Of a DNA stretch of 64,000 bases, positions 23,599-39,797 are shown one piece after another. Source of the stretch: Escherichia coli (lineage in GTDB: Bacteria; Pseudomonadota; Gammaproteobacteria; Enterobacterales; Enterobacteriaceae); assembly GCA_022969815.1 (NCBI GenBank), contig GCA_022969815.1_4535.1; one strand, 5' to 3'. The number at the start of each line of letters is the position of its first letter. The stretch's first letter is position 1. Position numbers and translations under genes: made by a program. Below the pieces are notes generated by a model that was not told where the DNA came from, did no database searches, and was given only the letters and a program-made list of their open reading frames with translations.

Positions 23599-24158
23599 AT
23601 GGGGAAGTCATTGCCAATGCGATCCACTATTACGGACGCTATGCACAAATGATTCAAGTACCTTACCTGGTAGATGCAGATATTCTTGCATACACACTAC
23701 CAGAAGGTAAAGAGGATCGCCCTTTGGGGCATCCTAATGGGAGATTCTATGTTGCCAGCGCAGAACAATCCTTCCTCCAGATGGAGAAAGATGGTTTTGA
23801 GTTTGTAGCAGAACACCCTTATATGGCATTGACCCCATGTTACCGCACAGAAGATGTTCTTGATGAAAGTCATTTTAACATCTTTCTGAAACTGGAATTG
23901 ATTGAGTTTTATCCGAAACATGGACCTATAGCATATGCAAAGGATATGTGTAATTTTCTTTGGACCTATTATAGTCTGGAAACACGTATAGTAAAAACTG
24001 AAATAGGGTTTGACGTGGAAGACAAATATGGGTTAGAATTAGGGTCATTCGGAATGAGGAATTCTCCGAAAGGTCATCCGTACATGTATGCCACAGGCAT
24101 AGCAGAACCACGAGCATCTATTGCTCTTAACCACAGAGAGGGGTTTATTTATGAATAA
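23595..24158 (+). CDS. hypothetical protein with class II aminoacyl-tRNA synthetase-like motifs, 187 aa
   Basis: PCYRTEDVLDESH...LELIEFY resembles class II motif 2; GLELGSFGMR resembles motif 3; tentative. Confidence 0.45.
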   Translation: MNGEVIANAIHYYGRYAQMIQVPYLVDADILAYTLPEGKEDRPLGHPNGRFYVASAEQSFLQMEKDGFEFVAEHPYMALTPCYRTEDVLDESHFNIFLKLELIEFYPKHGPIAYAKDMCNFLWTYYSLETRIVKTEIGFDVEDKYGLELGSFGMRNSPKGHPYMYATGIAEPRASIALNHREGFIYE

Positions 24159-25653
24159 GTCGATGGAAGAATTGGTTAAATATTATGTCCACACAGAAGA
24201 CCTGACAGATGCAGAGTTTACCAAGATCTATGATCTTTGCGAGCAGATTCAGCAAGGTCCGTGGGACAACGAAGAAGATTTTCGTAATGATGTAGGCGCA
24301 GAGACAGGGTTTTTGTTCTTTGATCCGTCTAATGGTATTGATGCTACACACTCCGAGGATTATCTGCCAGCAGGTGTTTCTTCTGTTACCACTACCGAAC
24401 ATTTTATTGATCTGCTTTTGGAGACAGCCTGGTGTGATTCGAAGCCTATCTACTACTGCATGAAGGATACGCTGCGTATGGCAGCAAGTCGTCTGTACGA
24501 TGGGAACTCCCGTTTATATACGGCTGTAGCCGCGCTTTATGGGAATGGTTGGACTGCCGATCAACTCCAAAAAGCTTGGGAAGAAGGGCATGGTGGGCGT
24601 GACGTTGTTATTTTCTCTGAAGTTTTAGGGGTGGATTCTATCTCCTATGAAAATATTCCACGCTTAGGGACAAAACCAGAAATCATAGATGGAGAAGAAA
24701 TGTTAGATCTTATTTTAGCTAAAGTGGCAGGGCGATCTATTCACGAAGTGTGCGTATCTACCAGAAAGATTTCCACAAGTCAAATGGAATCTCTTTTAAA
24801 GATTTTCACCCTGGTAACTGGTGAAGGGTATTGGAAAGATGCTGAACATTTTCTGATGTATAGTCGTGGTCTGTCTGAACACTACTCTTTCTATAGTTCT
24901 AAGTCGGGGATTGATGGTCACAACAGTCCACAAGGATTAGAAATAGGTGTTGACGAATTTATCAAACTGTTTTTGAAGCATTTAGGTATTGACAATACCG
25001 AGAAATCATTGGAAGATATCATTGCTGACTTAACAAAAGAAGGAGATAAAGTGGAAGAGAATACTTTTGAAGTTGAAGAATATGTGGACGAATATCTTCC
25101 GAACCCTGGTTTCCCTCCAGAGGGTAATCCTTATGTGAAGATCGTCTGCCGTAACGGGCAAACTTTCACAGGTCCAGCCGATGATATGGGTTGGAGAGTA
25201 GATGAGAACCATCCTGATAATTGGGATCTGGTGAAATACATGATTGTTCCGCGTGTAGCTAAAGTGGAGGCTGTTCGAGATGATGTGGTTGCTCCGGTAT
25301 ATGCACCTAAACCACGTTATCGCAAGACTCGCCAAAAACCTCCTGTAGGTAAGAAGCCAGTTGTGCGTATTCTCTACACCACACAACAAACCTACATGTT
25401 TAAGAATGTGGACAGTGTACAGGTTACAGGCGAGAAAGTGTATATCCAATATGCGCGTAATATTGCAGAAGGTATTGTTGAGTCTGTTGTTTCCGAGATC
25501 GACAGCAATCTGCTTCTCGCGGTGGTGATTGAAGAGAATGGACACCGTGATAACTTCTTAGCTAACATCGACGGTTCTTGGGATTACCAAGGTCATGATG
25601 GTACTGCCGTTAAAGGTGGTAAGCTGATGGGACGACAGTTCCTTTCTAAATAA
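24151..25653 (+). CDS. hypothetical protein, 500 aa
   Basis: ATG 24151 chosen (8-nt overlap with the upstream gene); no recognisable motif. Confidence 0.65.
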   Translation: MNKSMEELVKYYVHTEDLTDAEFTKIYDLCEQIQQGPWDNEEDFRNDVGAETGFLFFDPSNGIDATHSEDYLPAGVSSVTTTEHFIDLLLETAWCDSKPIYYCMKDTLRMAASRLYDGNSRLYTAVAALYGNGWTADQLQKAWEEGHGGRDVVIFSEVLGVDSISYENIPRLGTKPEIIDGEEMLDLILAKVAGRSIHEVCVSTRKISTSQMESLLKIFTLVTGEGYWKDAEHFLMYSRGLSEHYSFYSSKSGIDGHNSPQGLEIGVDEFIKLFLKHLGIDNTEKSLEDIIADLTKEGDKVEENTFEVEEYVDEYLPNPGFPPEGNPYVKIVCRNGQTFTGPADDMGWRVDENHPDNWDLVKYMIVPRVAKVEAVRDDVVAPVYAPKPRYRKTRQKPPVGKKPVVRILYTTQQTYMFKNVDSVQVTGEKVYIQYARNIAEGIVESVVSEIDSNLLLAVVIEENGHRDNFLANIDGSWDYQGHDGTAVKGGKLMGRQFLSK

Positions 25654-25658
25654 TGCAT

Positions 25659-25684
25659 AGGGCGCTCTCTGCGCCCTTTTTCTT
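25659..25684 (+). terminator. intrinsic terminator
   Basis: AGGGCGC-TCTCT-GCGCCCT followed by TTTTTCTTT. Confidence 0.65.
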
Positions 25685-25694
25685 TGGAGGTGAT

Positions 25695-25886
25695 ATGGTT
25701 ACGTATTTTGCAGTGAAAAACGAAGTAGGAACGGCTGGGAAGCTGATTATGGACAGCGATCGAGACACTCGTGAGGTTATTTGTATCCTGATTGATATTT
25801 TACAAAGAAAAGAGTTGCTTTCTGATCGAGATATTGCTAATCTACTTGGCATCGGCGGTGACGAACTTCAACGACTGCCATTCTAA
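25695..25886 (+). CDS. hypothetical protein, 63 aa
   Basis: ATG 25695 with GGAGG SD; the track start 25653 lies inside the terminator hairpin. Confidence 0.45.
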   Translation: MVTYFAVKNEVGTAGKLIMDSDRDTREVICILIDILQRKELLSDRDIANLLGIGGDELQRLPF

Positions 25887-25898
25887 AGGAGACTAACA

Positions 25899-26501
25899 AT
25901 GCAACAACTGATCGTTAATATGCCTCGCACTGGTAATGAAGTTTTTGGTGTACCAGTAGACAAAGTTTGGAAAGCACACTTTCATCTGACCTTAGCCGAG
26001 GTAAGTAGTGAAGAGCTTATGCGAGCAGCAAAGATTATCGGTGCAAAATGCACAACTATCGATCTACATCGTGACACGCAATCACAACGCGATCGTATGT
26101 TAACTAAGTATCAGGGTGGCATTGACACAGGCTTGATGTTGGAATGTGTGGCAAAGTTAAAAGCTGCTGGCTTCAAAGTGTTACGCTATAAACTGGAACA
26201 AATGTTCAAGGATGTAGAACATGTAATGCAGATGAACCTAAGCAAAGAGCACTACGGAGAGGTACACATCAAGACTCCTGCTTCTATGCCGGAGATTGAC
26301 ACTGGCTTCTTCCGTATCTCTTCTAATGCAGAAGAGGTGGATTATCGTTTCTATAATGCCCGTCTGTATACCGAAGAAGATAAGTTGCAGTTCAAGAAAG
26401 CTTATGATATGCTTCTGGCACATAATGTTGAAATAAAGGGCTACCATGTAGAACAAGTGGTAGTAGACAGTAATCTTAACTTAGACGCATGGTGGGCTTA
26501 A
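25899..26501 (+). CDS. hypothetical protein, 200 aa
   Basis: ATG 25899, AAGGAG SD. Confidence 0.6.
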   Translation: MQQLIVNMPRTGNEVFGVPVDKVWKAHFHLTLAEVSSEELMRAAKIIGAKCTTIDLHRDTQSQRDRMLTKYQGGIDTGLMLECVAKLKAAGFKVLRYKLEQMFKDVEHVMQMNLSKEHYGEVHIKTPASMPEIDTGFFRISSNAEEVDYRFYNARLYTEEDKLQFKKAYDMLLAHNVEIKGYHVEQVVVDSNLNLDAWWA

Positions 26502-26502
26502 T

Positions 26503-27159
26503 ATGACAATCAAACACATTTCTTTCGATGTATGGAACACACTGATCACAGCAAACCCAAATTACGCGGATATGCGAGCTTGGACTATCGCAAAATACGG
26601 AGATATTTCGGAAGTAGAAGCAAGAGCAGCTTACAAGAAGATCAAAAAGGAACTGGATAATGCGGCACTTCAGGGAACAGCCGAGTGTGCAGCATATGCC
26701 TGGGAAAGACTTGGTTACGAACTTGGGATAACACCTTTGAAGTCTGCAAAGCTTCGTTTCGAGTGTGAACAATGGTTCCTTAAGTTTCCACCTCATGTAG
26801 CTGTGGATCTACCGATGCACTTGCTATATCTTTCGGGGCGTTATGATTTGAGCATTAAGAGCAATACCAACTTCATATCAGGAGATATCTTGCGACGTGC
26901 CTGTAAGTTTGAAAGTTGGAATTGTTTTGAGTTCACACATTTCTCGGATGAAGCTTTACTTTGTAAACCAGATCCGCGATTCTTTGCTCGCACGATCACT
27001 TATTCTCCAATCCCTCTGGTAGGGCAGGAAGTGTTGCACGTAGGTGATAGTGAAGAATATGATGGAAAATGTGTTGACGTAGGATTTAACTTCTGTCATA
27101 TTAAGAACCCTAACGACTTGTTAGATAAACTTGCTAAAGGAGAACTTGTTAATGCGTAA
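26503..27159 (+). CDS. HAD-superfamily hydrolase, 218 aa
   Basis: motif I FDVWNTL (haloacid-dehalogenase-like), motif III KPDP, motif IV GDSEEYD. Confidence 0.65.
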   Translation: MTIKHISFDVWNTLITANPNYADMRAWTIAKYGDISEVEARAAYKKIKKELDNAALQGTAECAAYAWERLGYELGITPLKSAKLRFECEQWFLKFPPHVAVDLPMHLLYLSGRYDLSIKSNTNFISGDILRRACKFESWNCFEFTHFSDEALLCKPDPRFFARTITYSPIPLVGQEVLHVGDSEEYDGKCVDVGFNFCHIKNPNDLLDKLAKGELVNA

Positions 27160-27979
27160 TCAAACTCAAATCTTTGCTCACAAATTTGATAATCTGGAAA
27201 CTGCTCGCTTTGATATTCGTGATTATTCCAAACTGAAGTTTGGTAGCAACCAGGCGGCACGCCGTATGGGGAAAACATTAGCAGTCTCTTTCTATGACTT
27301 GGTAGTCAAGAATATGCCGGAAGAAGAGTTTGTGGTGATCCCTTCACCTTACAATCATGTGCATAACGCAGCAACGATGATGACCAATCAGTTCATCAAC
27401 TTCCTGAACCTGTTGCTGTTGAATCACAAGGGTAGCCGTGCAGTAGAGTTGGATACGATCCACCGCAAGGTGAGTTACATTAACGATTATGGTTTCCTGG
27501 ACAAAGCAAGCCGTAAGAAACTGATCGACGGGGACACATTTTATTGCAACAAAGATTTTTGGGGCAACAAGAAGTTGATCTTCATTGATGATGTGAACAT
27601 CACGGGGACTCATGAAGACAAACTCATTGAGATCCTGGATGAAAACAAAGTTACAAACGATGTTTACTTCCTGTATTTTGCCAAGTACACTGGTAATCAA
27701 GCAGACACAGAAGCTAAACTGAACTTCAATCATATTAACACGACAGATGCTTTTGTTAAGATGATCAATGAAGAACAGGATGCACAATGTTTGGTTCGTC
27801 CTATCAAGTATCTGATGGGACAAGCACCGGAAGAGTTTAAAATCATTCTCTCCCGTCTGCCACACCGTTATGTAGAAGCACTGTTCTTTGGGTGTCTTGG
27901 GGAAGGTTATGACAAGATCGAGAAGTATTCTGAAAACTTCGTCTTCCTGAACCGTTACTTTAACCAACATATCCTGTAA
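27152..27979 (+). CDS. phosphoribosyltransferase-like protein, 275 aa
   Basis: PRPP-binding-loop-like LIFIDDVNITGT; ATG 27152 with AAAGGAG SD chosen. Confidence 0.5.
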   Translation: MRNQTQIFAHKFDNLETARFDIRDYSKLKFGSNQAARRMGKTLAVSFYDLVVKNMPEEEFVVIPSPYNHVHNAATMMTNQFINFLNLLLLNHKGSRAVELDTIHRKVSYINDYGFLDKASRKKLIDGDTFYCNKDFWGNKKLIFIDDVNITGTHEDKLIEILDENKVTNDVYFLYFAKYTGNQADTEAKLNFNHINTTDAFVKMINEEQDAQCLVRPIKYLMGQAPEEFKIILSRLPHRYVEALFFGCLGEGYDKIEKYSENFVFLNRYFNQHIL

Positions 27980-27988
27980 GGAGGCAAA

Positions 27989-28462
27989 ATGTTGAAGGTT
28001 GTTACTGGGAATCTGATCGATGCAGCCAAGAATGGGGAAGTGAACGTTATAGCCCACTGTTGTAACTGTATGTGTAATATGGGTGCAGGAATTGCTCCGC
28101 AAATTAAACGAGCATTTCCTTATGCATATGCAGCAGATCTGGGCACAATGGCAGGTGATCAAAGTAAGTTAGGTTATTTTAGTTTAGGGGTGCCAGACGA
28201 ACAATCAGATCCTTTGGTATATAATCTATACGGGCAGTATCGTTATGGATACAATGCTAAAGGTCGTCAGTTGGACTATGATGCCCTCTACGATGCACTA
28301 ATAGCTATGGCTAATGATTTGCTTCTCCGTGACCAAAAATGTAAGATCGGTTTACCTATGATTGGAGCGGGACACGCTGGAGGTAATTGGGCTATCATCC
28401 AAGTGATGATTGAAGAAACTTTAGTAAAAACAGGTCACGATGTGACTATCTATAAACTTTAA
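27989..28462 (+). CDS. macro-domain protein, 157 aa
   Basis: VVTGNLIDA...VNVIAHCCNC...GAGIA and later GAGHAGG match the macro-domain (ADP-ribose binding/hydrolase) pattern. Confidence 0.7.
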   Translation: MLKVVTGNLIDAAKNGEVNVIAHCCNCMCNMGAGIAPQIKRAFPYAYAADLGTMAGDQSKLGYFSLGVPDEQSDPLVYNLYGQYRYGYNAKGRQLDYDALYDALIAMANDLLLRDQKCKIGLPMIGAGHAGGNWAIIQVMIEETLVKTGHDVTIYKL

Positions 28463-28475
28463 GAGGAGAAATATT

Positions 28476-28697
28476 ATGGGCGTTTTAGCAGGTATTCTTG
28501 CAGTGATTATTGTGTTTGTTATTGCTTTTCTGATCAGTATGATTCCAGCATGGCTTCTGCTGCTGGCTTATAACTACGTTGTTGAAATGATGGGTCACAC
28601 AGATATCACTGTTCCTATCACCTTCTGGACTGTGGTGTGTGTGGCATTTATCATGGCTGTACTACGTGGGATCTTTTCCTCAAGTTCTTCAAAATAA
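28476..28697 (+). CDS. small membrane protein with two hydrophobic segments, 73 aa
   Basis: AGGAG SD; predicted TM segments. Confidence 0.55.
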   Translation: MGVLAGILAVIIVFVIAFLISMIPAWLLLLAYNYVVEMMGHTDITVPITFWTVVCVAFIMAVLRGIFSSSSSK

Positions 28698-28700
28698 GTG

Positions 28701-28759
28701 TTGACAAAGTTTTAGAATAGAGTAAGATGTATCACATGAGGCGGGGAGTGGTTCCCCGC
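28701..28759 (+). promoter_or_regulatory. early-type promoter-hairpin module on the + strand, upstream of terC
   Basis: -35 TTGACA 28701-28706, 16-nt spacer, -10 TAAGAT 28723-28728, then GTATCACAT and hairpin GCGGGGAGTGGTTCCCCGC 28741-28759. Confidence 0.65.
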
Positions 28760-28778
28760 AAAGAGAAAGGAGAAAATA

Positions 28779-29753
28779 ATGCAACTTGGTTTCCCCATTA
28801 TTGATGTAGTGGTTCTGGTAGGTATCTTAGTACTGTCTATTGCGGTGGATTTTTTCGGGCACCGTGAGAACAAGGAGATCTCATTCAAATCAGCAGTCGG
28901 TTGGTCAATCTTTTGGATTGGGGTGTCACTGGCGTACTACGGTTTTGTATACTTCCAACATGGCGCTGACTTCGCCAACCTGTTCCTAAGTGGGTATGTG
29001 TTAGAGAAGTCGCTTTCGGTAGATAACTTAGTTGTGTTTGTGGCAGTGTTCACCAGTTTCGGTATTAAGAGCACGCACTTACAACATAAGATTCTGCTGT
29101 GGGGTATTGCAGGTGCGATTGTCTTCCGAGGTGTGTTTGTAGCAGCAGGTACTTACTTGTTAAGTTTGGGCTGGTATGTTAACATTATCTTCGGTGCTGT
29201 TATCCTGTTCTGTGCATTCAAAATGGTAATGGCTGGCGGGGATGATGAAGAAGTTGATTACTCTAAACATTGGGCTACCCGCGTCGTTCGTAAACTGTTC
29301 CCAGTATCGGATCAGATGGATGGTGAGAAGTTCTTCACGATTAAGAATGGTGTTCGTGTAGCAACTCCGGCTCTGGTTTGTGTGTTCGTGATGGAAATGG
29401 TAGATGTGATCTTTGCAGTAGACTCGGTTCCGGCTGTAATTGCAGTGACACAAGAACCTCTGCTGGTGTTCTCTTCGATGCTCTGTGCAATCTTAGGCTT
29501 ACGTGCTCTGTTCTTTGTTCTTAGTGTGGCCCTGAAGTATCTGGTTCACCTGGAGAAAGCAGTTATCGCGGTACTGGTGTTTGTTGGTGTGAAACTGATG
29601 TATCACCCGTTTGCAGAAACGCTGCACGCAAAAGTGAGCTTCCTGCCAGCGCATATTGACCCGACGATCAGCATGTATATCGTGCTTGGTACTCTGACCC
29701 TGGGCGTGATTGCAAGTTTCATCTTCCCTGAAAAAGAAGAAGCTACCGCTTAA
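28779..29753 (+). CDS. terC: TerC-family integral membrane protein, 324 aa
   Basis: multiple TM helices and the TerC signature EKSLSVDNL. Confidence 0.8.
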   Translation: MQLGFPIIDVVVLVGILVLSIAVDFFGHRENKEISFKSAVGWSIFWIGVSLAYYGFVYFQHGADFANLFLSGYVLEKSLSVDNLVVFVAVFTSFGIKSTHLQHKILLWGIAGAIVFRGVFVAAGTYLLSLGWYVNIIFGAVILFCAFKMVMAGGDDEEVDYSKHWATRVVRKLFPVSDQMDGEKFFTIKNGVRVATPALVCVFVMEMVDVIFAVDSVPAVIAVTQEPLLVFSSMLCAILGLRALFFVLSVALKYLVHLEKAVIAVLVFVGVKLMYHPFAETLHAKVSFLPAHIDPTISMYIVLGTLTLGVIASFIFPEKEEATA

Positions 29754-29761
29754 TACCAATG

Positions 29762-29786
29762 AACCTCCTTCGGGAGGTTTCTTACT
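29762..29786 (+). terminator. candidate intrinsic terminator after terC
   Basis: AACCTCC-TTCG-GGAGGTT followed by a T-rich tract. Confidence 0.55.
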
Positions 29787-29801
29787 AACATAGGAGGAAT
29801 T

Positions 29802-30152
29802 ATGTCTGTATATTTTGACGATGTTCAGGAATATGTTTGGTGTCTTTCTGGCACAATCTCGGAGGTAGAAGCTGCGATTCAAGAGGTTTTTCCTTACGCT
29901 TATGTAGAAGTTAAACAGGCACCTCCTATGGATCTTCCCCCTAATGTGGAAGCTTGTTGTGGTTCCGGCGAGGGTACAGTCATCCCAGTTCTGCGTTACG
30001 AACTACAAGCAGCAAGTGCAAATGTCGATGATATTATTACAGAAATTAAGGCGTATGGTTTCTGGACCTCTCCTTACGCTAAATGGGATAACTCTGACAC
30101 TTGGGATTTATTCTTCTGGGATAATGAGACAGATGACGAGGTATTTCTGTAA
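29802..30152 (+). CDS. hypothetical protein, 116 aa
   Basis: ATG 29802, AGGAGG SD. Confidence 0.55.
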   Translation: MSVYFDDVQEYVWCLSGTISEVEAAIQEVFPYAYVEVKQAPPMDLPPNVEACCGSGEGTVIPVLRYELQAASANVDDIITEIKAYGFWTSPYAKWDNSDTWDLFFWDNETDDEVFL

Positions 30153-30394
30153 TGAAAGTTGTTTGGGTTGTGTTTGAAAATATTTGTTTTGCAATAGGTT
30201 TGTTCGTCATACTTTTTGTGTTGACAAACGTGATCAATGGTAGTAAAGTATCCCTATACAAAGACGGGGAGCAGATTTACTGCTTCTCTGGAGATTTCAA
30301 ACACACCTGTGTTAATATGCAGAAAGAAGAAACTCCACACCAGAAGTCAAGAGAAGATTTTGATTGGTGGTCACTACTTAATAACTTAAGATGA
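30152..30394 (+). CDS. small protein with N-terminal TM helix, 80 aa
   Basis: hydrophobic N-terminus VVWVVFENICFAIGLFVILFVL. Confidence 0.5.
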   Translation: MKVVWVVFENICFAIGLFVILFVLTNVINGSKVSLYKDGEQIYCFSGDFKHTCVNMQKEETPHQKSREDFDWWSLLNNLR

Positions 30395-30403
30395 GGAGAA
30401 AAT

Positions 30404-31270
30404 ATGAAAAATATTCAGCCATTACCTGTAGTTGGGGATTTGTATTTCTTATCTGGTACGGGTTATTCCCCAGAAGCATTAGAAGTTAACAAGAACGTCT
30501 TCCGAGTGAAAGAAATAAGAGAAGAATGTAATGAAATTGTTTTCGAAGGTATTACTAACGGAGTTCTTCAGTATGCAGAGATGCGTAGCTGCTTCCAGCA
30601 ACCTTTCCGCCCGTTGGCAGACGAGTATAAGATTGCGGTAAATATTGACGATCTTAAAAAATCTCCTTTGTTTGAAGGGTTCTCTGCTTTTATGGCAGAT
30701 ACTTATGTTGATGTAAAGAGATCTAACCTTTTCGCAGGGGATAATTTCCCTCACTTTGTAGCAGAGAAAAGTCATGGTTTTTCCGATTATGTGGATGCTG
30801 TAAACTATGATGTTTCTGAATTGACAGGAGAGCAGGATTATCTCCTGTTGTCTCCTGAAGATTTCATGAGTGTAATGTATGCCGTAGCTGAACAGAAATG
30901 GAAGAAAGAAGAACCTGTAGCCAAAGTTAAAAAGGTTAAAGGTAAACGTGCCAAAGGTGTTCCAGAACGTAAGCGCACCGTAAATAAGGCGACAGTTTTC
31001 TTTACCAGCGGTGAGCAATATACGATCAAAGGTTTTAAAGAAGTGGGTTACACTGCTGGCGGAAACCTTATGTTCTTCACAGTTGCAGAAGAAGGAGAAA
31101 CTTTTATCCGTTTTTCCAATATGTGGGAAATGTCTGTAGAAGATATTAAAAGTGTTGTTGTTTTAGGTGTACATAAGAGTTTCATTATTAACCAAATCTC
31201 TGATTTCAGTGCACACTTAACGGCACCAGATTTCGAAACTACCACAACAAGCTTTAACTTCAAGGTGTAA
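30404..31270 (+). CDS. hypothetical protein, 288 aa
   Basis: ATG 30404, GAGGAG SD. Confidence 0.6.
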   Translation: MKNIQPLPVVGDLYFLSGTGYSPEALEVNKNVFRVKEIREECNEIVFEGITNGVLQYAEMRSCFQQPFRPLADEYKIAVNIDDLKKSPLFEGFSAFMADTYVDVKRSNLFAGDNFPHFVAEKSHGFSDYVDAVNYDVSELTGEQDYLLLSPEDFMSVMYAVAEQKWKKEEPVAKVKKVKGKRAKGVPERKRTVNKATVFFTSGEQYTIKGFKEVGYTAGGNLMFFTVAEEGETFIRFSNMWEMSVEDIKSVVVLGVHKSFIINQISDFSAHLTAPDFETTTTSFNFKV

Positions 31271-31273
31271 TGC

Positions 31274-31864
31274 ATGAATACCGAGAGAGATTTAAAACTC
31301 TTGTGGTGGGAAGTGATGCAGGAGATCAAGGAAGATTTCCCTGTTTACTACAACATGCTACGTGAAGCTGGATATACGGCTTGCGTTAGGAACAAAGTGA
31401 ATAACTCTTTCGGTTGGTGCAACTACCGAGAAAAGATTGTTGTTGTGAATTGGTACTTGCATAAAAACTCCACAAGGGATATGATAGTGGACACAATGAA
31501 GCATGAAATTGCTCATGCTATTGATGGTTGTATGGGTAAGTTCAGTCGTCATGGACCACACTGGCAAAAACTGGCAGCAGAGTTGGGAGCCAATCCTAAA
31601 GCTACTTCCAAAGAACCGTTCAATCATGAATACAAATATGTTCTTGTTTTGGTAGACAGATTTGCCACAAGATGTGTTAGAGGGTATAATCGTAAACCTA
31701 ACCGTATGACTCCAGGGAAACAACCACATATTTGGTTGAAGAGTGATAAAGAGGGGACAGAAGGAAAAATATGGTTGTATAAATGGGAAGATTGGGTTAA
31801 AGTAGCTAAAGAATATGGTGTTTCACCTTACACAAGAGAAATAGAAGAGGAGAATGAAGAATGA
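31274..31864 (+). CDS. SprT-like zinc metallopeptidase, 196 aa
   Basis: HExxH motif MKHEIAHAIDG with a downstream H and SprT-like N-terminal region. Confidence 0.6.
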   Translation: MNTERDLKLLWWEVMQEIKEDFPVYYNMLREAGYTACVRNKVNNSFGWCNYREKIVVVNWYLHKNSTRDMIVDTMKHEIAHAIDGCMGKFSRHGPHWQKLAAELGANPKATSKEPFNHEYKYVLVLVDRFATRCVRGYNRKPNRMTPGKQPHIWLKSDKEGTEGKIWLYKWEDWVKVAKEYGVSPYTREIEEENEE

Positions 31865-32973
31865 CAAGTCCATTTTTGAAAGCGGCAACTGGTGGTCAAA
31901 AGAAATCTGAAACGAGTGTACTGACTGCTACTACAGACGCAAGCAAGTCCGTGTTCGCTCCGAGTGTCCTGGATGCAAGTCCGGTGTATGCTCCAGCAGC
32001 GCCAAAAGCTGTGCCTACCCTGCCAACAATGTCTCGTAAAGAGATTGAAGAAGTAGGTGCAGAAGCAGGTTTAACTCTCCGTTCTCTGAACGCTGAAGTG
32101 CTGAAGCACCAACGTAGCAATCAAGGTGACGAAATGAGTCAACGCCTTACCGCCTTGATTAAACAAGCCAAACAGCTTGATCCTGCCTCCATTAAGCAGA
32201 GTAAAGGTGTAGGTAAACTCATCAAGAAACTGATGGGGATGAAAGAAGATCTCTTCGGCGAGTTTGATAACGTGAACAACCGTATCGAAGAACTCGTTAA
32301 GAATCTTCAAATGGATATCCGTAAAGAAGAAGACTCTCTGGTGTACCTGGAGAAGCTGCACCAGGCGATCGGGCAGTACGCCGCAAGTCTGAATCGTGAT
32401 ATGGAATTACTCACAGCAGCTTATGAGCAAGAACTGGCTACTTTTGAAGCCACACCAGAAGATGATGTAGAAGCCCGTCAGAGCGTCCGTGACACGCTTG
32501 ATCTTCTGGAGATACGTATTGCTGACTTAAAGGCATTACGCTTGCTGTGCGTGCAAATGGGGCCGCGTGTACTGGGTATGCAGAAAGTATCTGCCAGCCT
32601 CATGCGTTCTGCTCGTAATATTGTGAACAATGTGATTCCTGCTTACTCTGCCAACTTCTCAATGTATATTGAAAGTCTGCGCCAGAAGAAAGCAGCAGAA
32701 ACACAGAACAACGTTCTGGACGAGTTCAACCTGGCAATCAAACTGGGTAGCGATCTTGCCACACAGAATCAGATCGAAGCAGCAGCACTGGCTAACCGCC
32801 AAGTGTTGGATATTGAAACCCTGCGTCACGATCAGGAAAACTTGGTTAAGATGTTGGAAGAAACTAACCGCATCAATACGGAAGCCCGTGCTGCCCGTGT
32901 TGATTACATCAATGAAGTTCAATCTCTCGAAGATGGGATGGTTGATGCTGTTAAGAAGGGGCTTGGTAAATGA
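31861..32973 (+). CDS. coiled-coil protein, possibly TelA-like, 370 aa
   Basis: long helical, charged repeats; size and composition are compatible with TelA-type proteins; family assignment unverified. Confidence 0.55.
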   Translation: MTSPFLKAATGGQKKSETSVLTATTDASKSVFAPSVLDASPVYAPAAPKAVPTLPTMSRKEIEEVGAEAGLTLRSLNAEVLKHQRSNQGDEMSQRLTALIKQAKQLDPASIKQSKGVGKLIKKLMGMKEDLFGEFDNVNNRIEELVKNLQMDIRKEEDSLVYLEKLHQAIGQYAASLNRDMELLTAAYEQELATFEATPEDDVEARQSVRDTLDLLEIRIADLKALRLLCVQMGPRVLGMQKVSASLMRSARNIVNNVIPAYSANFSMYIESLRQKKAAETQNNVLDEFNLAIKLGSDLATQNQIEAAALANRQVLDIETLRHDQENLVKMLEETNRINTEARAARVDYINEVQSLEDGMVDAVKKGLGK

Positions 32974-33164
32974 GAATCCGTATCTATATAATTGATGATA
33001 GTTTTGGTGTACGTTATGATGACGAACGTCGATTCGCACCTATGAGCAGCGTACATCCCCCAAGCATTTTAGCAAGTTTACGGAAAGATTATTCTTATGA
33101 AACTTGTAATAGTTTCGGTTTTGAGATTCTTTCAGATATAGAATTTAATGAGGAAGAAGAATGA
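32970..33164 (+). CDS. hypothetical protein, 64 aa
   Basis: ATGA overlap. Confidence 0.45.
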   Translation: MRIRIYIIDDSFGVRYDDERRFAPMSSVHPPSILASLRKDYSYETCNSFGFEILSDIEFNEEEE

Positions 33165-33334
33165 AAATTTTACGAGTGAGCATCGAAACAGCTTGGTGTG
33201 GATGTAGTGAGGTTGTTGATATTGAGATTGAAGAGGATATGTCTCAAGAAGATATCGAAGATCTTGCAAAAGAAACATTCCAGGATTATTGTAACTACGG
33301 GTTCCATATTTTAGAGGAGGGAGAAGATGTTTAA
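33161..33334 (+). CDS. small acidic protein with CGC motif, 57 aa (not in ORF track)
   Basis: ATGA overlap; the stop overlaps the next ATG; reads MKILRVSIETAWCGCSEVVDIEIEEDMSQEDIEDLAKETFQDYCNYGFHILEEGEDV. Confidence 0.4.
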   Translation: MKILRVSIETAWCGCSEVVDIEIEEDMSQEDIEDLAKETFQDYCNYGFHILEEGEDV

Positions 33335-33530
33335 CTACGAGAACGACCCTAACATTATCCAGTTAACTCGACAAGAACTGATCACAATCATGGAAGATGC
33401 TTTTATCGATGGGTGGAAGACTCAAAACTATGATTGGAGTGGCCCAGAAGACTTTCTGCGTCTTCATAAAGAGTATGACGAGTCCAGTGAGACGACTATT
33501 GCCATTGACGATCTTAAGGCAGGTGTATAA
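33327..33530 (+). CDS. hypothetical protein, 67 aa
   Basis: GGAGGGAG SD. Confidence 0.5.
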   Translation: MFNYENDPNIIQLTRQELITIMEDAFIDGWKTQNYDWSGPEDFLRLHKEYDESSETTIAIDDLKAGV

Positions 33531-34099
33531 TGGGTTGCTTTAGTTTTCTGTGTAAGGAGTCGGGCAAAGCTGCCCTCTCCACCTCTTTCGATGGATCTCC
33601 TTGCTATCTCTTTCTACTGAAAGATGGAAAGGTTATCGAAGAGATGCACGGCAATTATGATAGTTATGGGCGTGTCTTCTCCAGTAAGCAGGATGCTCAC
33701 GGGAACAGAGAAAGCTTTAAATGGACTATACCTTGGAGCGACGTTTGTGATCTTATGTTCTCTGTAAACCGTGGAGACGGTATTGCTATGGTTTTAGCAG
33801 AACACTTTACAGGAGAAGCCCCCACAGAACGATCCGAGGATGATCCTAATCAAGGTTGGGGAGACGGAGAAGAAGAGGAAGAAGAGGATTATTTCTACAG
33901 CACCGAAAATAATATTTTCAAACGTGTTGACAACCCTTATCATAAAGTGCATAATGTCCTCACTGAAACAGAAGACGACAAAATGGAAATTGAAGAAGAT
34001 GATCCTCTTGTAACACTGCCTACAAGCGAGTTACAAAAAATCATCAAAGAAGCTTACGATTTGGGCTTCAAAACTGGTAAAGGAGGAGTTAATGTTTGA
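33530..34099 (+). CDS. hypothetical protein with polyacidic tract, 189 aa
   Basis: GEEEEEEDYFY acidic run. Confidence 0.55.
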   Translation: MGCFSFLCKESGKAALSTSFDGSPCYLFLLKDGKVIEEMHGNYDSYGRVFSSKQDAHGNRESFKWTIPWSDVCDLMFSVNRGDGIAMVLAEHFTGEAPTERSEDDPNQGWGDGEEEEEEDYFYSTENNIFKRVDNPYHKVHNVLTETEDDKMEIEEDDPLVTLPTSELQKIIKEAYDLGFKTGKGGVNV

Positions 34100-34364
34100 T
34101 TTTAAAATAAAAGATTCAAAACCCCAAGACGTAGCGGTTCGCTTCGAAGAGTTGGGGATTGGTGAAACTTTCATGTATTATTCAGCATACGAAGAAAATG
34201 GTTTGGATACATTTGCAAACTTAGTATTTCTTAAAAGCGGCGGCGCGACTGCTGTTTGTTTGAATAGTTCATCAAGAGGGAGTGTTCATACCGTATCCCC
34301 AGATGTGCCGATGGTTGCAGTTCGTTTAGTAGTTACCGATATTACACTTACAGAGGAGAAATAA
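34092..34364 (+). CDS. hypothetical protein, 90 aa (paralog of 35386..35667)
   Basis: shared F.IK(K)DSKP...SAY(E/D)E(N/D)GLD pattern. Confidence 0.5.
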   Translation: MFDFKIKDSKPQDVAVRFEELGIGETFMYYSAYEENGLDTFANLVFLKSGGATAVCLNSSSRGSVHTVSPDVPMVAVRLVVTDITLTEEK

Positions 34365-34365
34365 T

Positions 34366-35166
34366 ATGTCCAATAAAATTAGCCTGAAGAAACGCCAAGA
34401 CACCCTGACCATTTCACTGAAGAAAAAGAAAATCGTGAACGAAGATCAAAAGATCGTTCTGCGTGTTGCAAGTGCACTGGATATCTCCGGTAGCATGTCC
34501 AGCCTGTATCGTAACGGTACTGTAAGTGAGTTTGTTGGTAAGTTGCTTCCGTTTGGTATGCTGTTCGATGATAACGCGCAGATCGATATGTGGGCTTTCA
34601 ACAATAGCTCTCGTGAAATCACTCCAGCAACTGCTGATGTGTATGATGATTACGTTGGTAAATGCATTAATGGTCGTGTAACAGTCCAGGGTGGCACAAG
34701 CTATGCACCTGTTATGCAGGATATTTACGATTCCTACTTCGGTAGCACCACTAAATATGAAACTGTAGAAACTCCTGTAACCAAAGAAGTTCCTAAGAAA
34801 GGTTTCTTCAACCGTTTACTGGGTAAAACTGAAACTGTAGAAGCTGTTGTAGAAAAAACTGTAGCCGTTGCTGTGCCTGGTGTAGACGTTACTCCGGCAG
34901 TTGTGTTCTTCCAGACAGATGGTGAGAACGATGATCCGAGCCGTGTACTCTCCGTACTGGAAAAGAACAAGGGTAAACCTATCTACTGGTTCATGGTGGG
35001 TGTTGGTAGTGCTCGTTTCTCTTTCCTGAAAGATTTGGCTGAAGCTTACGACAACGTAGCATTCATTGGTCTGAACGATCTTTCCTTGACAGACGAGCAG
35101 CTTTACGATAAACTCTTGTCTGAAGAGTTCGGTGAGTGGGTCGAAAAGGTTGGTGCTAAGAAATGA
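34366..35166 (+). CDS. vWA-domain protein (TerY-like), 266 aa
   Basis: MIDAS motifs DISGSM, GGTSY, QTDGEND; N-terminus ISLKK...ISLKK like the TerD-type protein downstream. Confidence 0.7.
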   Translation: MSNKISLKKRQDTLTISLKKKKIVNEDQKIVLRVASALDISGSMSSLYRNGTVSEFVGKLLPFGMLFDDNAQIDMWAFNNSSREITPATADVYDDYVGKCINGRVTVQGGTSYAPVMQDIYDSYFGSTTKYETVETPVTKEVPKKGFFNRLLGKTETVEAVVEKTVAVAVPGVDVTPAVVFFQTDGENDDPSRVLSVLEKNKGKPIYWFMVGVGSARFSFLKDLAEAYDNVAFIGLNDLSLTDEQLYDKLLSEEFGEWVEKVGAKK

Positions 35167-35405
35167 TCGACACGCTGATCTCTCAAACGGTGTTACAAGT
35201 GATGCGCGAGAGAGAAGCTTTCATCATGAAGGGTCTTAAAGATTACTTTGGGACTCTTTCTTTGGAAGAACTCAAGCTACGCGTTGAAATCCATCAGTAT
35301 CCTTTTTATGAAGAATGGATTGACAAAGCAAATAAAGCTGTTATAATGCGTATCAACAAACCAGAAATCACGACAGGAGGACAAGATGTTAAATTTCGCC
35401 ATTAA
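35163..35405 (+). CDS. hypothetical protein, 80 aa
   Basis: ATGA overlap. Confidence 0.5.
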   Translation: MIDTLISQTVLQVMREREAFIMKGLKDYFGTLSLEELKLRVEIHQYPFYEEWIDKANKAVIMRINKPEITTGGQDVKFRH

Positions 35406-35667
35406 GAAAGATAGCAAACCAGAGATTCAGACTTGTCGCATTGCAAATCTTACACATCGGGATTTGTTTGTTCTGAAAAGCGCCTACGATGAAGACGGTC
35501 TTGACCCAGAAGCAGTCATCGTTTATATGGTATTGCGGCGAGACGAAGACACCAAGCACCCATATAATGCGGTAGAAATGAATTACAATGCAATGTTGTG
35601 TTCAATACACCATACGGCAGAGTTGGTGCAGGTAGAGTTAACAGTTAACGAAATTAAACTTAAATAA
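35386..35667 (+). CDS. hypothetical protein, 93 aa (paralog of 34092..34364)
   Basis: AGGAGG SD; shared pattern with 34092..34364. Confidence 0.5.
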   Translation: MLNFAIKKDSKPEIQTCRIANLTHRDLFVLKSAYDEDGLDPEAVIVYMVLRRDEDTKHPYNAVEMNYNAMLCSIHHTAELVQVELTVNEIKLK

Positions 35668-35682
35668 TAGAGGAGACATATA

Positions 35683-36285
35683 ATGAGCGATAAAATTTCC
35701 CTGAAAAAAGGTTCCACCGACAAGATTTCCCTGAAGAAAGTTGCTCCGGCACTGAAAGAACTGCGTCTGGAGTTCTCCTGGAAATCAAACTCTAAACTGG
35801 ATCTGGATGTAAGCGCACTGGTATGCCGACACAACGCTTCTGGCAACCCTGAAATGCTGTCTGCACGTCATCTGGTTTGTTATGCTAACAAGTTTGATCC
35901 AGAACGTTCTGTATTCGCGGGTGATGATGTTCGTGACGGTACTGGTCAAATGGAACAGATCGATGTAACCTTGGCTAAGATCTCCGATAAAGCCGAAGAG
36001 ATTGCTTTTGTCCTGACTATTGATGATGAAACGGGTCAGAAACGTCTGGGTCACGCTACTGAAGGTATGCTGAAGATTTTCGATTCCGAACGTAACGTAG
36101 AGATCCTGGACTTCGACTTCCTGGCTCCTGAAGTAGCTGGTAACACGATCTGCCACGTAGCTTCCTTGGTTCGTGAAGACGGCGAATGGAAACTGAAAGC
36201 TTACGGTGTTGGTAAAGCAGGTATGGATATCTGTGATGTGGTTATGGCCTTCGGTGGTCAGAAAGAATGGTATGATTGCCCGTAA
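35683..36285 (+). CDS. terD: TerD-family protein, 200 aa
   Basis: ISLKKG...ISLKK, LDLDVSALV, FAGDDVRDGTGQMEQIDV, EIAFVLTIDDE, EDGEWKLKAYGVG match the TerD/TerZ/TerE domain pattern. Confidence 0.8.
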   Translation: MSDKISLKKGSTDKISLKKVAPALKELRLEFSWKSNSKLDLDVSALVCRHNASGNPEMLSARHLVCYANKFDPERSVFAGDDVRDGTGQMEQIDVTLAKISDKAEEIAFVLTIDDETGQKRLGHATEGMLKIFDSERNVEILDFDFLAPEVAGNTICHVASLVREDGEWKLKAYGVGKAGMDICDVVMAFGGQKEWYDCP

Positions 36286-36322
36286 GATTTAACTGAAATG
36301 TTGTTGGGGGAGAAATCCCCCA

Positions 36323-36351
36323 TTGCAAAAACGCCTCTCATGTGTTATACT
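36323..36351 (+). promoter_or_regulatory. sigma70-type promoter for the hydrolase gene
   Basis: -35 TTGCAA 36323-36328, 17-nt spacer, -10 TATACT 36346-36351; hairpin GGGGGAGAAATCCCCC 36306-36321 just upstream. Confidence 0.6.
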
Positions 36352-36382
36352 GGTAGTTCATTCACCCAAAAGGAGGCAAAAT

Positions 36383-36904
36383 TTGCTGATAAAAAACTTT
36401 GTAACAGTTGCGTTACTATCCTTAACTGCTTTTACATTTACACCTGTCACGGCAACCGCCGAAGCTGCAAACGTAAAGACTGCTAAAGTAGTTCACAAAT
36501 GTGCAAAGCAAGATACTAAAGAAAATCTCTTAGCTTGTGCAATTTACGCTGAAAGTCGTAATCAGGGTAAACGTGGAATGTATGCTGTAGGTAACGTAGT
36601 ATTGAACAGGAAAGGTGATGATTACTTCCCTGACAATATTAAAGATATTCTCTTCCAACGGGGACAATTCTCTTACAGGAAGAAGTTTAACGTTACTGAA
36701 GCAGAGCGATGGAAAGAAGCTAAAGCTATCGCAAAACGACTTATATACCTGGATACAAACTTCCCTACACTTAGAGAAGCCCAGGACATGACAAAAGGTG
36801 CGACATTTTTTAAGAAAGTAAAAACCCGTGCACACTGGACAAAAGATATGGTCTTAGTGTATCGTTATAAAGAACATCAGTTCTACTCACCGACAAGGAG
36901 CTAA
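36383..36904 (+). CDS. SleB-like cell-wall hydrolase with signal peptide (probable endolysin), 173 aa
   Basis: hydrolase motifs LACAIYAESRNQGKRGMYAVGNVVLNRKG...FP...QRGQFS; TTG start 36383 six nt after AGGAGG; cleavable signal-like N-terminus VTVALLSLTAFTFTPVTATAEA. Confidence 0.7.
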   Translation: MLIKNFVTVALLSLTAFTFTPVTATAEAANVKTAKVVHKCAKQDTKENLLACAIYAESRNQGKRGMYAVGNVVLNRKGDDYFPDNIKDILFQRGQFSYRKKFNVTEAERWKEAKAIAKRLIYLDTNFPTLREAQDMTKGATFFKKVKTRAHWTKDMVLVYRYKEHQFYSPTRS

Positions 36905-36905
36905 T

Positions 36906-37190
36906 ATGCGAGAAGATAATACTGTTGTTGTTGCGAGCTATCTCGTTATCGGTTTAACCGAAGAAGATGTGTACTACATTCGTAAAGGTTTGGAAGCTTA
37001 CGCTACCCTCTTCATGGAAGACGAAAGCGATGTTGATAAATATTCCGTGGAGTTGATCAACGACAGTATTTATCCTTGCATAGCTCTTAAAGTAGATGCT
37101 GTTCTGTGGGAGCGTTTTGCAAGAAGTCACGATGCTATTGAATCTTCAATGGTTATGACACAAAACAACATTTTGGGGGTGATTCACTAA
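36906..37190 (+). CDS. hypothetical protein, 94 aa
   Basis: AAGGAG SD. Confidence 0.5.
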   Translation: MREDNTVVVASYLVIGLTEEDVYYIRKGLEAYATLFMEDESDVDKYSVELINDSIYPCIALKVDAVLWERFARSHDAIESSMVMTQNNILGVIH

Positions 37191-37601: not shown

Positions 37602-38165
37602 ATGATTTATTATATTACCCCGTATCTGACTGGAGATATCGGCAAAGCAATTAACGATGCTATTGCCGTTCTTCATGAAGATAGTTGGGTGTGTTTACGT
37701 GATACAGATACCATGTTCTTACTGCCAGACCAACCTTCCATGTTGGAAGATTTGGTAGCAACCAACCCACCGTTCGATGTAATCGGTGCATCCTGTAACC
37801 GTTTAGGCAGTAGTTATCAACTCCTCGGCGGAAAGATTGATGATGATCCTGACATTCTGAACCATATTTCTCATGCCAAAGTTGCTCGTGATTACTATGG
37901 TGATGAAATTGAGGAAGTCCCACAAGGCACTCCCTTGGCAGGTTTCTTCCTATTGTTCAGGAAATCATTATGGAAGGAGATCCCTTTTGAAGAACGTAGC
38001 ATCCAGTTCGATATAATCTTCTCAAACACTTTACATGAACGAGGGAAAAGGTTAGGATTGATGCGTGGGATGTATCTCTTCCACATTTACCGTTTAGGTC
38101 AAAAAGATCCTCAACGGGCAATATCACACCTCATGCATTGTCATGATCACCGGAAAACTATTTAG
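37602..38165 (+). CDS. hypothetical protein, 187 aa (possible transferase)
   Basis: sits at the head of the glycosyltransferase cluster; no firm motif. Confidence 0.5.
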   Translation: MIYYITPYLTGDIGKAINDAIAVLHEDSWVCLRDTDTMFLLPDQPSMLEDLVATNPPFDVIGASCNRLGSSYQLLGGKIDDDPDILNHISHAKVARDYYGDEIEEVPQGTPLAGFFLLFRKSLWKEIPFEERSIQFDIIFSNTLHERGKRLGLMRGMYLFHIYRLGQKDPQRAISHLMHCHDHRKTI

Positions 38166-38173
38166 GGGGAAAG

Positions 38174-39791: not shown

Positions 39792-39797
39792 GTGTCT

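Follow-up and report, generated by a model that had tools for sequence, protein, structure and literature searches.

The mechanism of Ter systems has been open for about three decades, and why lytic phages should carry Ter genes is likewise an open question. It is posed here by a locus at positions 25,899 to 36,285 of a 64,000-nucleotide stretch of DNA deposited as Escherichia coli (assembly GCA_022969815.1, contig GCA_022969815.1_4535.1), hereafter called the window. A first-pass annotation had described this locus as a Ter-type island carried by a phage on one strand within about 10 kb, and this description holds, all of the open reading frames (ORFs) that it listed being present on the + strand. 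The identity of the island as a phage-resident Ter system is secure, and the mechanism discussed below is drawn from its protein families and from the published bacterial Ter systems. Judging by sequence identity, the source of the window is a myovirus of about 150 kb belonging to the subfamily Stephanstirmvirinae (a phAPEC8/phi92-like coliphage), since the 10.4-kb region is 95–96% identical to Escherichia phages phiWec188 and phiWec190 and to "Pseudomonas" phage PsgM04F, and about 80% identical to phAPEC8-type phages. A new genus of Stephanstirmvirinae has recently been proposed for the phiWec phages (PMC12695924). GenBank records of the subfamily already hold scattered labels for parts of the island (TerC, TelA-like, "general stress protein 16U", "orotate phosphoribosyltransferase" and macrodomain). 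There are several earlier reports of Ter clusters in phages (PMC7824862, PMC8386662, PMC9796965), and the present island remains one of this known kind.

Pfam profile searches, judged against the curated cut-offs of the models and accompanied by searches of NCBIfam, the PDB, PHROG, PADLOC-DB and Rfam, place the proteins at 28779..29753 and 35683..36285 (both + strand) in the TerC and TerD families, as the first-pass annotation had proposed. The former is an integral membrane protein of the TerC/Alx family of metal or cation exporters, matching Pfam TerC (PF03741) at 3.1e-39 (135 bits, cut-off 27.8) and NCBIfam TIGR03718 (TerC/Alx metal homeostasis) with 325.6 bits (cut-off 246.4). The latter is a TerD-domain protein, present in a single copy and with a degenerate 13-residue Ca2+-binding motif, which matches Pfam TerD (PF02342) at 2.6e-29 (102.5 bits, cut-off 25.3) and the solved TerD structures 3ibz and 2kxt in the PDB at about 2e-14. 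The protein at 31861..32973 (+), previously called TelA-like for its size, is a true TelA of the all-helical toxic anion resistance family: its residues 59–360 match Pfam TelA (PF05816) at 1.8e-34 (119.8 bits, cut-off 30) over profile positions 13–326 of 332. At 34366..35166 (+) lies a vWA-TerF-like protein (PF10138, 2.4e-37, 129.5 bits, cut-off 29.4) whose metal-ion-dependent adhesion site (MIDAS; DISGS...GGT...TDG) is intact and conserved in 8/8 aligned sequences, namely the window protein and seven phage homologues. The TerD-like "ISLKK" N-terminus noticed in it earlier was also borne out; it forms a TerD-type "ISLKK..ISLKK" hairpin, is common to this protein and TerD, and proved in the alignment to be family-wide among vWA-TerF-like proteins. 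None of TerC, TelA, vWA and TerD matched the defence systems of PADLOC-DB (e.g. TerY-P). PADLOC matches in the island were restricted to the macro domain (DarG), the 200-aa protein p200 at its start (AbiEi) and a weak generic match of the phosphoribosyltransferase (PRTase).

Two enzymes, encoded by a translationally coupled gene pair, precede these genes. The HAD-superfamily hydrolase at 26503..27159 (+), of subfamily IA, REG-2-like and with a D-x-W-x-T motif I, falls slightly under the Pfam HAD cut-off (22.1 against 26.4 bits), and its assignment is backed by a match to PDB 2om6 (7.5e-5), by the NCBIfam REG-2-like IA model (9e-8), by orthologues in other loci that match PF00702/PF13419, and by its motifs. 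These were tested as motif I DxDx(T/V), II S/T, III K and IV (G/S)DxxxD; in the alignment of 17 orthologues the nucleophile Asp and motifs II (SNTNF), III (KP) and IV (GDxxxxD) are all kept, and membership of the HAD fold is sound. The stop of the HAD gene is overlapped by 8 nt by the start of the gene at 27152..27979 (+), encoding a ComF-like PRTase_3 protein (PF15610, 4.5e-41, 141.4 bits, cut-off 28.7) with a C-terminal helical domain. Its phosphoribosyl pyrophosphate (PRPP) loop reads LIFIDDVNITGTHEDK, of which the DD, ITGTHE and K residues do not vary among 15 sequences. No sequence relative of PRTase_3 was found in the PDB. The first-pass annotation had treated a PRTase fold of this protein as decisive, and AlphaFold, given 15 homologues, returned a model (pLDDT 90.2, pTM 0.87) whose top PDB matches by Foldseek were HGPRT/HGXPRT, ComF (7p0h), PyrR and APRT (E about 1e-5), with an extra helical domain at residues ~186–275. 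The model thus indicates that the PRTase_3 of the window has a type-I PRTase fold.

Does this enzyme pair belong with the Ter genes? The PRTase alignment was used to retrieve loci from IMG/VR, a metagenome collection and GTDB genomes, and the loci were analysed by local gene calling, iterative hidden Markov models (HMMs), clustering and Pfam; the genome contigs were scanned by exact peptide patterns and gave 4 loci, the bacterial sample being therefore small. The HAD gene lies directly upstream of the PRTase gene in 17/19 loci. Six families, TerC/DUF475 (DUF475 being a TerC-family protein), TelA, TerD, vWA-TerF, HAD and PRTase_3, are found within 10 kb in 6 of the 13 phage loci outside the Stephanstirmvirinae that carry PRTase_3. 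These six are divergent uncultivated phage contigs and their gene orders differ: TerC-x-vWA-x-TerD-TerD-x-TelA-HAD-PRTase-SPFH/Band7-x-hydrolase in L022, TelA-vWA-x-x-x-DUF475-HAD-PRTase-TerD in L019, TelA-YqeY-HAD-PRTase-vWA-x-DUF475-TerD in L023, and TerC-TelA-TerD-x-vWA-HAD-PRTase in L026, L005 and L006. The 389–402-aa proteins of the latter three were not called TelA by BLAST or by a small HMM and were counted as divergent TelA by cluster membership; the one in L026 matches Pfam TelA at 1.1e-9. In the window, lineage-specific small genes separate the six, which together take up about 10 kb, and a macro domain, an SprT-like protease and a secreted cell-wall hydrolase are added to them. Outside phages, a metagenome-assembled genome (MAG) of Haliea (L011) encodes a TerC-like protein, TerD, TerY-type vWA proteins, TerY_C and PP2C, followed by TerD-HAD-PRTase_3, the PRTase being 39% identical to the phage enzyme.

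Since the six families co-localise in 6/13 loci and in part in a bacterial ter locus, their clustering is not due to chance, and since content is conserved while order is shuffled, the set bears the hallmark of a functional unit. We conclude from these comparisons that the conserved core consists of the six genes. The recurrence of the set in phages, together with TerD-HAD-PRTase_3 in the bacterial locus, also shows that the HAD-PRTase link to Ter is real and that both genes belong with the island. Candidates for a seventh core gene were sought among the 290–420-aa fillers (p288, p189, c11, c57 and others) and rejected; these show no homology across clusters, with hhalign probabilities all below 10%.

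Conservation of the island extends over more than 130 Stephanstirmvirinae genomes in GenBank. Both genera keep HAD, PRTase, the macro domain, a small membrane protein, TerC, p80, p288 and TelA, as well as p67, p189, p90, vWA, TerD and the hydrolase. Compared with phages EF1-1 and PaulScherrer, the ratio of nonsynonymous to synonymous substitution rates (dN/dS) is 0.03–0.12 for HAD, PRTase, TerC, TelA, vWA and TerD (0.03–0.07 for TelA), at synonymous sites that are near saturation. With the PRPP loop, the MIDAS and the HAD nucleophile intact, these ratios indicate that the genes are working and under strong purifying selection. The suggestion that the island is inert cargo, host-derived and without a role in the phage, could appeal to the mosaic gene content around it, NrdDG, p200 and SprT being variably present. 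It is contradicted by the selection analysis, by the conservation across both genera and by the intact catalytic and binding motifs; furthermore, the nearest PRTase relatives are located on phage-like contigs and not in host genomes. We therefore consider it exceedingly improbable.

The island has nevertheless exchanged parts within the subfamily. Its terC is 94% identical to the Justusliebigvirus copy and 71% identical to most Phapecoctavirus copies, and the pattern for HAD across both genera is the reverse (93% against 51%, in the comparison with L003 and L004). These opposite patterns point to inter-genus recombination inside the island, which would thus be a mosaic.

How does this set compare with known Ter systems? 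The bacterial ones, terZABCDEF of IncHI2 plasmids and E. coli O157 and the yceCDEFGH type of B. subtilis, were reportedly analysed by Anantharaman, Iyer and Aravind in 2012. They share the TerC, TerD, TelA, vWA-TerF-like, PRTase_3 and HAD families with the phage of the window, whereas they have several TerD paralogues where the phage has one, with a degenerate Ca2+ motif, and ATP-grasp and TIM-barrel lyase enzymes that the phage lacks. Unlike them, the Ter genes of the window lie in a lytic phage among phage-specific small genes. That bacterial Ter clusters are linked to PRTase and HAD enzymes, as the first-pass annotation stated, is restated in PMC7824862 and directly visible in the gene neighbourhood of the Haliea MAG. 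Bacterial ter confers resistance to phage, colicin and tellurite (PMC7824862).

Phage Ter systems with PRTase and HAD have been described by Iyer et al. 2021 (PMC7824862, section 3.4.10), who proposed that they exclude superinfecting phages. Their examples, the Acinetobacter jumbo phage vB_AbaM_ME3 and the Caulobacter jumbo phages, carry TerD, a TerC-family protein, vWA, TelA and PRTase with HAD (called "signal biosynthesis" genes), as does the window, and "certain other related smaller tailed phages" are named there just in passing. The order in ME3 (L028, 6010–16041) is NAD synthetase, x, macro, x, x, vWA, DUF475, x, TerD, x, PRTase_2, HAD, StiP/PELOTA. Its biosynthetic module is thus PRTase_2, HAD and StiP/PELOTA, whereas that of the window is a single PRTase_3 with the D-x-W-x-T HAD, in a phage that at about 150 kb is not a jumbo phage. 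A phage Ter system with PRTase and HAD is already described, and the window, from a coliphage below jumbo size, holds its PRTase_3 variant. Otagovirus phages (PhiPsa374, PN09) and the Klebsiella phage phiKp34 carry a four-gene ter cluster of TelA, vWA-TerF, TerC and TerD in a virulent phage, as in the window, but lack the HAD-PRTase_3 pair. To this published picture the present analysis adds a defined six-gene phage core, a PRTase_3-linked HAD family without the general-acid Asp, and the setting apart of the macro domain as a likely independent counter-defence enzyme that removes ADP-ribose.

The explanation that we find best as a whole, and put forward tentatively as not quite an even bet, is a Ter system that is tuned by a ligand of the PRTase_3-HAD pair and protects the envelope of the infected cell. 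The genes of the island, lying in a long replication-side transcription block, would probably be expressed early. The PRTase would join a base to PRPP, and the HAD enzyme would dephosphorylate or otherwise process the product, giving a nucleoside-like ligand. TerD, vWA and TelA would assemble with TerC on the cytoplasmic face of the inner membrane, and the complex would alter cation flux and membrane properties, tuned by the ribosylated ligand. The infected cell would thereby be hardened, until programmed lysis, against insults to the envelope such as DNA entry of superinfecting phages, colicin-type pores, and depolarisation that triggers premature lysis. By analogy, this is essentially the idea of Iyer et al. 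for jumbo phages (PMC7824862) extended to the Stephanstirmvirinae lineage. The general suggestion of host-physiology manipulation in the first-pass annotation is a fair reading of the same evidence. A membrane theme recurs: the L022 cluster ends with an SPFH/Band-7 protein and a cell-wall hydrolase, and the island itself encodes small membrane proteins.

Stephanstirmvirinae offer a compact version of Ter, with one TerD, one TerC, TelA, one vWA and one PRTase-HAD pair. E. coli K-12 is a host for members of the family, among them BASEL collection phages and the "tuntematon" set, so that the predicted nucleoside-like metabolite and the membrane phenotype are experimentally tractable.

Several observations weigh against this explanation. 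The phage has neither TerB nor the TerY-kinase-PP2C triad of bacterial Ter. The D+2 general acid of the PRTase_3-linked HAD is Trp or Tyr in 17/17 orthologues and never Asp, and plain phosphatase chemistry is not assured in a HAD family that lacks this residue. A K. pneumoniae TerD structure paper reportedly describes a bipartite Ca2+-binding motif, GDN(R/L)TG(E/A)GDGDDE. The corresponding motif of the window TerD is GDDVRDGT--GQME against the canonical GDNxTGxGDGDDE; in the alignment the DLD element is retained and three acidic positions are lost, whereas other phage and bacterial TerDs retain the full motif. This does not exclude TerD membership, since non-binding TerD paralogues exist. The early expression assumed above is predicted from consensus promoter matches. 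The function of phage ter clusters has been stated to be unknown (PMC9796965, PMC8386662).

A further point against the explanation is that HAD-PRTase_3 occurs without any Ter gene within 10 kb in 7 of the 13 phage loci outside the Stephanstirmvirinae and, in a MAG of Akkermansiaceae (L009, 6420–10783), without Ter genes and beside a Na/Ca exchanger and a trypsin-like protease. Both observations would fit an island made of two unrelated neighbouring modules, a p200-HAD-PRTase-macro counter-defence operon that interferes with nucleotide signals and reverses ADP-ribosylation, and a separate Ter membrane module. A strong terminator at 25659 lies on one side of the first unit and terC's own promoter on the other, its macro domain is of the SCO6735/DarG type, p200 matches the AbiEi models of PADLOC, and phage macrodomain anti-DarT factors are known (PMC13309987). 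However, HAD-PRTase_3 lies tightly beside Ter genes in six independent phage loci with varied gene orders, and directly after TerD in the bacterial ter locus. Moreover, some phages with a pair remote from Ter genes carry such genes elsewhere: in Caulobacter and Brevundimonas jumbo phages HAD-PRTase_3 lies 28–37 kb from the Ter genes, and Rhizobium phages have the pair and a distant vWA-TerF gene. We regard two unrelated modules as unlikely.

Two further neighbours of the pair were seen in other phages. In Xanthomonas phage XaC1 (L001, 11333–14527) HAD-PRTase_3 adjoins a DUF2828/DUF7788 protein, which we take to be TROVE/vWA-like. A YqeY-like (GatB C-terminal-like) protein, of which there is none in the window, is encoded near HAD-PRTase_3 in six phage loci (L006, 10810–11262; L023, 8825–9268; L022, 875–1276; L026, 13311–13748; L001, 18981–19412; L014, 3715–4149); its gene lies directly after the PRTase gene in L006 and between TelA and HAD in L023.

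The gene after the PRTase, at 27989..28462 (+), encodes the macro domain, which the first-pass annotation had placed in a nucleotide-metabolite toolkit linked to Ter. The family call itself stands: the protein is slightly under the Pfam macro cut-off (20.6 against 22 bits), and is backed by PDB matches to the SCO6735 macrodomain 5e3b (1.2e-12, the best), T. aquaticus DarG 5m31 (1.6e-7) and TARG1 (3e-6), as well as by the DarG models of NCBIfam (3e-9) and PADLOC (2.5e-10). It belongs to the TARG1/DarG/SCO6735 (ALC1-like) class. Its AHCCN, GQY and GAGHAGG motifs align with the essential N27, Q85 and G128 of SCO6735, so that it shares the essential Asn, Gln and Gly of that protein and, like it, has Gln in place of the catalytic Lys of DarG and TARG1. 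As a full DarG antitoxin (NF048014) it scores 36.5 bits where the model requires 250; the alignment is confined to the macro part, the protein having 157 aa against the 338 positions of the model and no C-terminal DarT-binding domain. SCO6735 is efficient at taking thymidine-linked ADP-ribose off DNA and gives protection against DarT (PMC9411070); among phage macrodomains, AdfM acts against DarTG2 (PMC13309987). DarG2 and AdfM differ from the window protein in having the catalytic Lys in place of Gln, and DarG2 also in having the DarT-binding domain.

The macro domain is not conserved as a part of Ter clusters. Its family is common in phages (2983 of 50,697 phage records, about 6%, including T4 tk.4) and missing from most compact phage Ter clusters; for these reasons it is, by comparison with its relatives, more likely an independent ADP-ribose-removing counter-defence enzyme that is merely co-transcribed than a Ter part. 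It would act separately and, like DarG or AdfM, strip ADP-ribose off DNA or some other target. As a reservation on this independence, macro domains lie near Ter genes in ME3, where the domain is of the Gln type, in PN09 and in L019. In XaC1 a macro domain lies near the HAD-PRTase pair, and no Ter genes were found there.

The first-pass annotation had also offered an NAD/ADP-ribose salvage route, in which HAD, PRTase_3 and macro rebuild NAD+ or recycle ADP-ribose against NAD-depleting defences, with Ter coupled to them. Consistent with such a route, the macro gene is co-transcribed with HAD-PRTase at gaps of 9–13 nt, and other phages have NAD-related genes in comparable places. In Otagovirus PN09 (L029, 2688–13712) Prs-like, NAPRTase-family and macro genes lie directly 5' of TelA-vWA-TerC-TerD, NARP1-type genes with a macro gene thus taking the slot held by HAD-PRTase_3-macro in the window. 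The NAD synthetase and macro genes of ME3 adjoin its Ter cluster. Right after PRTase_3 there is a cytidylyltransferase-like (NMNAT-like) gene in L026, a Nudix gene in Rhizobium phage TM30, and PnuC with an AAA_28 kinase (NadR-like) in L006. Against the route, nicotinamide and nicotinate PRTases have a type-II fold, whereas PRTase_3 has a type-I fold nearest to HGPRT, ComF and PyrR. A HAD phosphatase acting on NMN would oppose NAD synthesis, and the macro domain is both absent from most compact Ter clusters and widespread in phages generally. No consistent NAD function emerges from ten further genes (Nudix among them) that adjoin HAD-PRTase in seven other loci. The known phage NAD+ reconstitution pathways are NARP1, consisting of Adps and Namat, and NARP2, consisting of NadV and NMNAT. 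Neither gene set was found in a search that covered the window and 98 kb of the nearest relative, about two thirds of the relative's genome, and the same search gave no homologues of Prs-like, NAPRTase-family, NMNAT, Nudix, PnuC, NadR or NadE proteins. On this evidence the salvage proposal is not supported, although the neighbourhoods in the other phages leave a hint in its favour, and we consider such a route distinctly unlikely.

A joint form of the two ideas would couple phage Ter modules to chemistry derived from NAD or ADP-ribose. It would treat HAD(D-x-W-x-T)-PRTase_3-macro as the functional counterpart of the Otagovirus Prs-like/NAPRTase-family/macro genes, making or recycling a ribosylated ligand that is sensed by TerD and vWA to gate TerC/TelA, the six-gene set being a portable anti-abortive-infection device. 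If true, this would mean that the membrane of the infected cell survives NAD+ depletion or pore formation by host defences; we consider it very unlikely.

The TerC family assignment raises another alternative, namely that the island serves metal housekeeping, the export or metalation of Mn2+, Zn2+ or Ca2+, with TerC as the effector and the other proteins as its regulators. One use might be the supply or protection of phage enzymes, or of the secreted cell-wall hydrolase whose gene adjoins terD. TerC passes the cut-off of the TerC/Alx metal-homeostasis family, TerD and vWA have folds that bind metal, many smaller phages carry a stand-alone TerC gene, and the pair in the Akkermansiaceae MAG has a Na/Ca exchanger beside it. 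In K. pneumoniae, terC confers Zn and Mn resistance and affects phage resistance (PMC12054061). Metal housekeeping would, however, leave unexplained why the PRTase-HAD pair and TelA travel with the set, and the Ca2+ motif of the window TerD is degenerate. A Mn2+ (yybP-ykoY) riboswitch 5' of terC, as in bacterial Alx, was considered and rejected: an Rfam scan of 25000–37000 with E up to 1 found none, its sole match being one chance lncRNA. We judge metal housekeeping to be rather unlikely, and return to the transcription assumed for the ligand-tuned Ter system.

The island is part of a long + strand block, about 16 to 48 kb of the window, which also encodes a UvrD-type helicase, glycosyltransferases, a primase/helicase and DNA polymerase I. 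It is thus on the replication side of the genome and not on the structural side. An intrinsic-terminator-like hairpin, AGGGCGC..GCGCCCT with a T run, at 25659..25677 (+; 7 pairs, 6 of them G-C), is followed by TTTTTCTTT. It lies just past the stop, at 25653, of a 500-aa gene and marks the end of the upstream helicase unit and the boundary of the first transcription unit of the island. It is followed by a tightly packed run that opens with a 77-aa ORF and continues through p200, HAD, PRTase and macro to a 73-aa membrane protein, with gaps of 1 to 13 nt or the 8-nt overlap from p200 onward. A sigma-70-like promoter, TTGACA-16-TAAGAT, and a 5' untranslated region hairpin, GCGGGGA..TCCCCGC, precede terC (28701..28759, +; consensus match), and a stable UUCG-loop hairpin follows directly after its stop (29762..29779, +). 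A perfect sigma-70 consensus promoter, TTGACA-16-TG-TATAAT, with 12/12 matches and an extended -10, lies 5' of p93-terD at 35320..35347 (+), inside a small ORF, and suggests early transcription by host polymerase. As terC and terD have sigma-70-like promoters within a replication-side block, they, and the island genes with them, are probably made early.

The 200-aa protein p200 (25899..26501, +; PHROG 22504), first gene of the p200-HAD-PRTase-macro unit, has invariant HxHxT, EVHIK and HxE motifs in the alignment. Its AlphaFold model (pLDDT 84) is a tandem ferredoxin-like fold with no confident PDB match, and it matches the "AbiEi" HMMs of PADLOC at 4e-13. No orthologue was found in phage PaulScherrer, and p200 is absent from Justusliebigvirus. 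It falls outside the Ter core and may serve counter-defence as an antitoxin-like gene. An SprT-like zinc metallopeptidase with a HEIAH motif (31274..31864, +; Pfam 2.2e-9), the end of whose gene overlaps the start of telA, likewise has no orthologue in PaulScherrer by our searches and is absent from Justusliebigvirus; we regard it as accessory. A 73-aa small hydrophobic membrane protein (28476..28697, +), the 288-aa protein p288 (30404..31270, +) and the 189-aa acidic protein p189 (33530..34099, +), the latter two lineage-specific, are conserved in both genera of the subfamily. A short motif, T..EL..I...A...G.KT, seems by eye to be shared by a 67-aa protein (33327–33530) and the C-terminus of p189.

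The 90-aa protein p90 (34092..34364, +), directly 5' of the vWA gene, and the 93-aa protein p93 (35386..35667, +), directly 5' of terD, are paralogues (33% identity, E 7e-10 by BLASTP). Both of the proteins that they precede begin with a duplicated "KISLKK" hairpin, and the ribosome-binding regions and first codons of the vWA and terD genes are similar at the DNA level (repeats D1 and D2; 34343–34393 and 35660–35740). The ribosome-binding region of the 73-aa gene is repeated upstream of vWA and TerD (repeat D1). From these similarities p90-vWA and p93-TerD look like a duplicated two-gene unit, and p90 and p93 could be partners or chaperones of the TerD-type N-terminus.

Directly 3' of terD, at 36383..36904 (+), lies the gene of a secreted cell-wall hydrolase (SleB/Hydrolase_2, Pfam 4.6e-17) with an N-terminal signal peptide, which relatives annotate as endolysin. 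It starts with TTG at 36383, preceded by an AAGGAGG ribosome-binding site, and the hydrolase at the end of the compact cluster in L022 is its homologue. After the island and before the primase/helicase and DNA polymerase genes there are four glycosyltransferase-like genes (37602–40742), two of which are paralogues of about 320 aa each.

Upstream of the island, at 23347–25653, the window has an 83-aa, a 187-aa and the 500-aa gene. By eye the first two were taken as MazG-like and class-II aminoacyl-tRNA synthetase-like, and this was rejected, Pfam, NCBIfam and PDB searches giving no match. The 187-aa gene has the PHROG label "histidyl tRNA synthetase", a label also borne by a second gene elsewhere in the genome of the nearest relative (L030, 40345–40917), and the C-terminus of the 500-aa gene matches a PHROG labelled ribonucleotide reductase. 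In EF1-1 and PaulScherrer the anaerobic ribonucleotide reductase genes nrdD and nrdG lie between the 500-aa gene and the HAD unit; at this site the window (25653–25899) has the 77-aa ORF and the terminator only. Because the strong terminator, and in relatives nrdDG, lies in between, the 83-aa and 187-aa genes were not counted as parts of the island.

Several GenBank records are near-identical to Stephanstirmvirinae coliphages across the island, namely MG065639–MG065689 ("Campylobacter phage"), OR584014 ("Pseudomonas phage PsgM04F") and OP562383 ("Acinetobacter phage ABPW7"), and their non-Escherichia host labels look doubtful.

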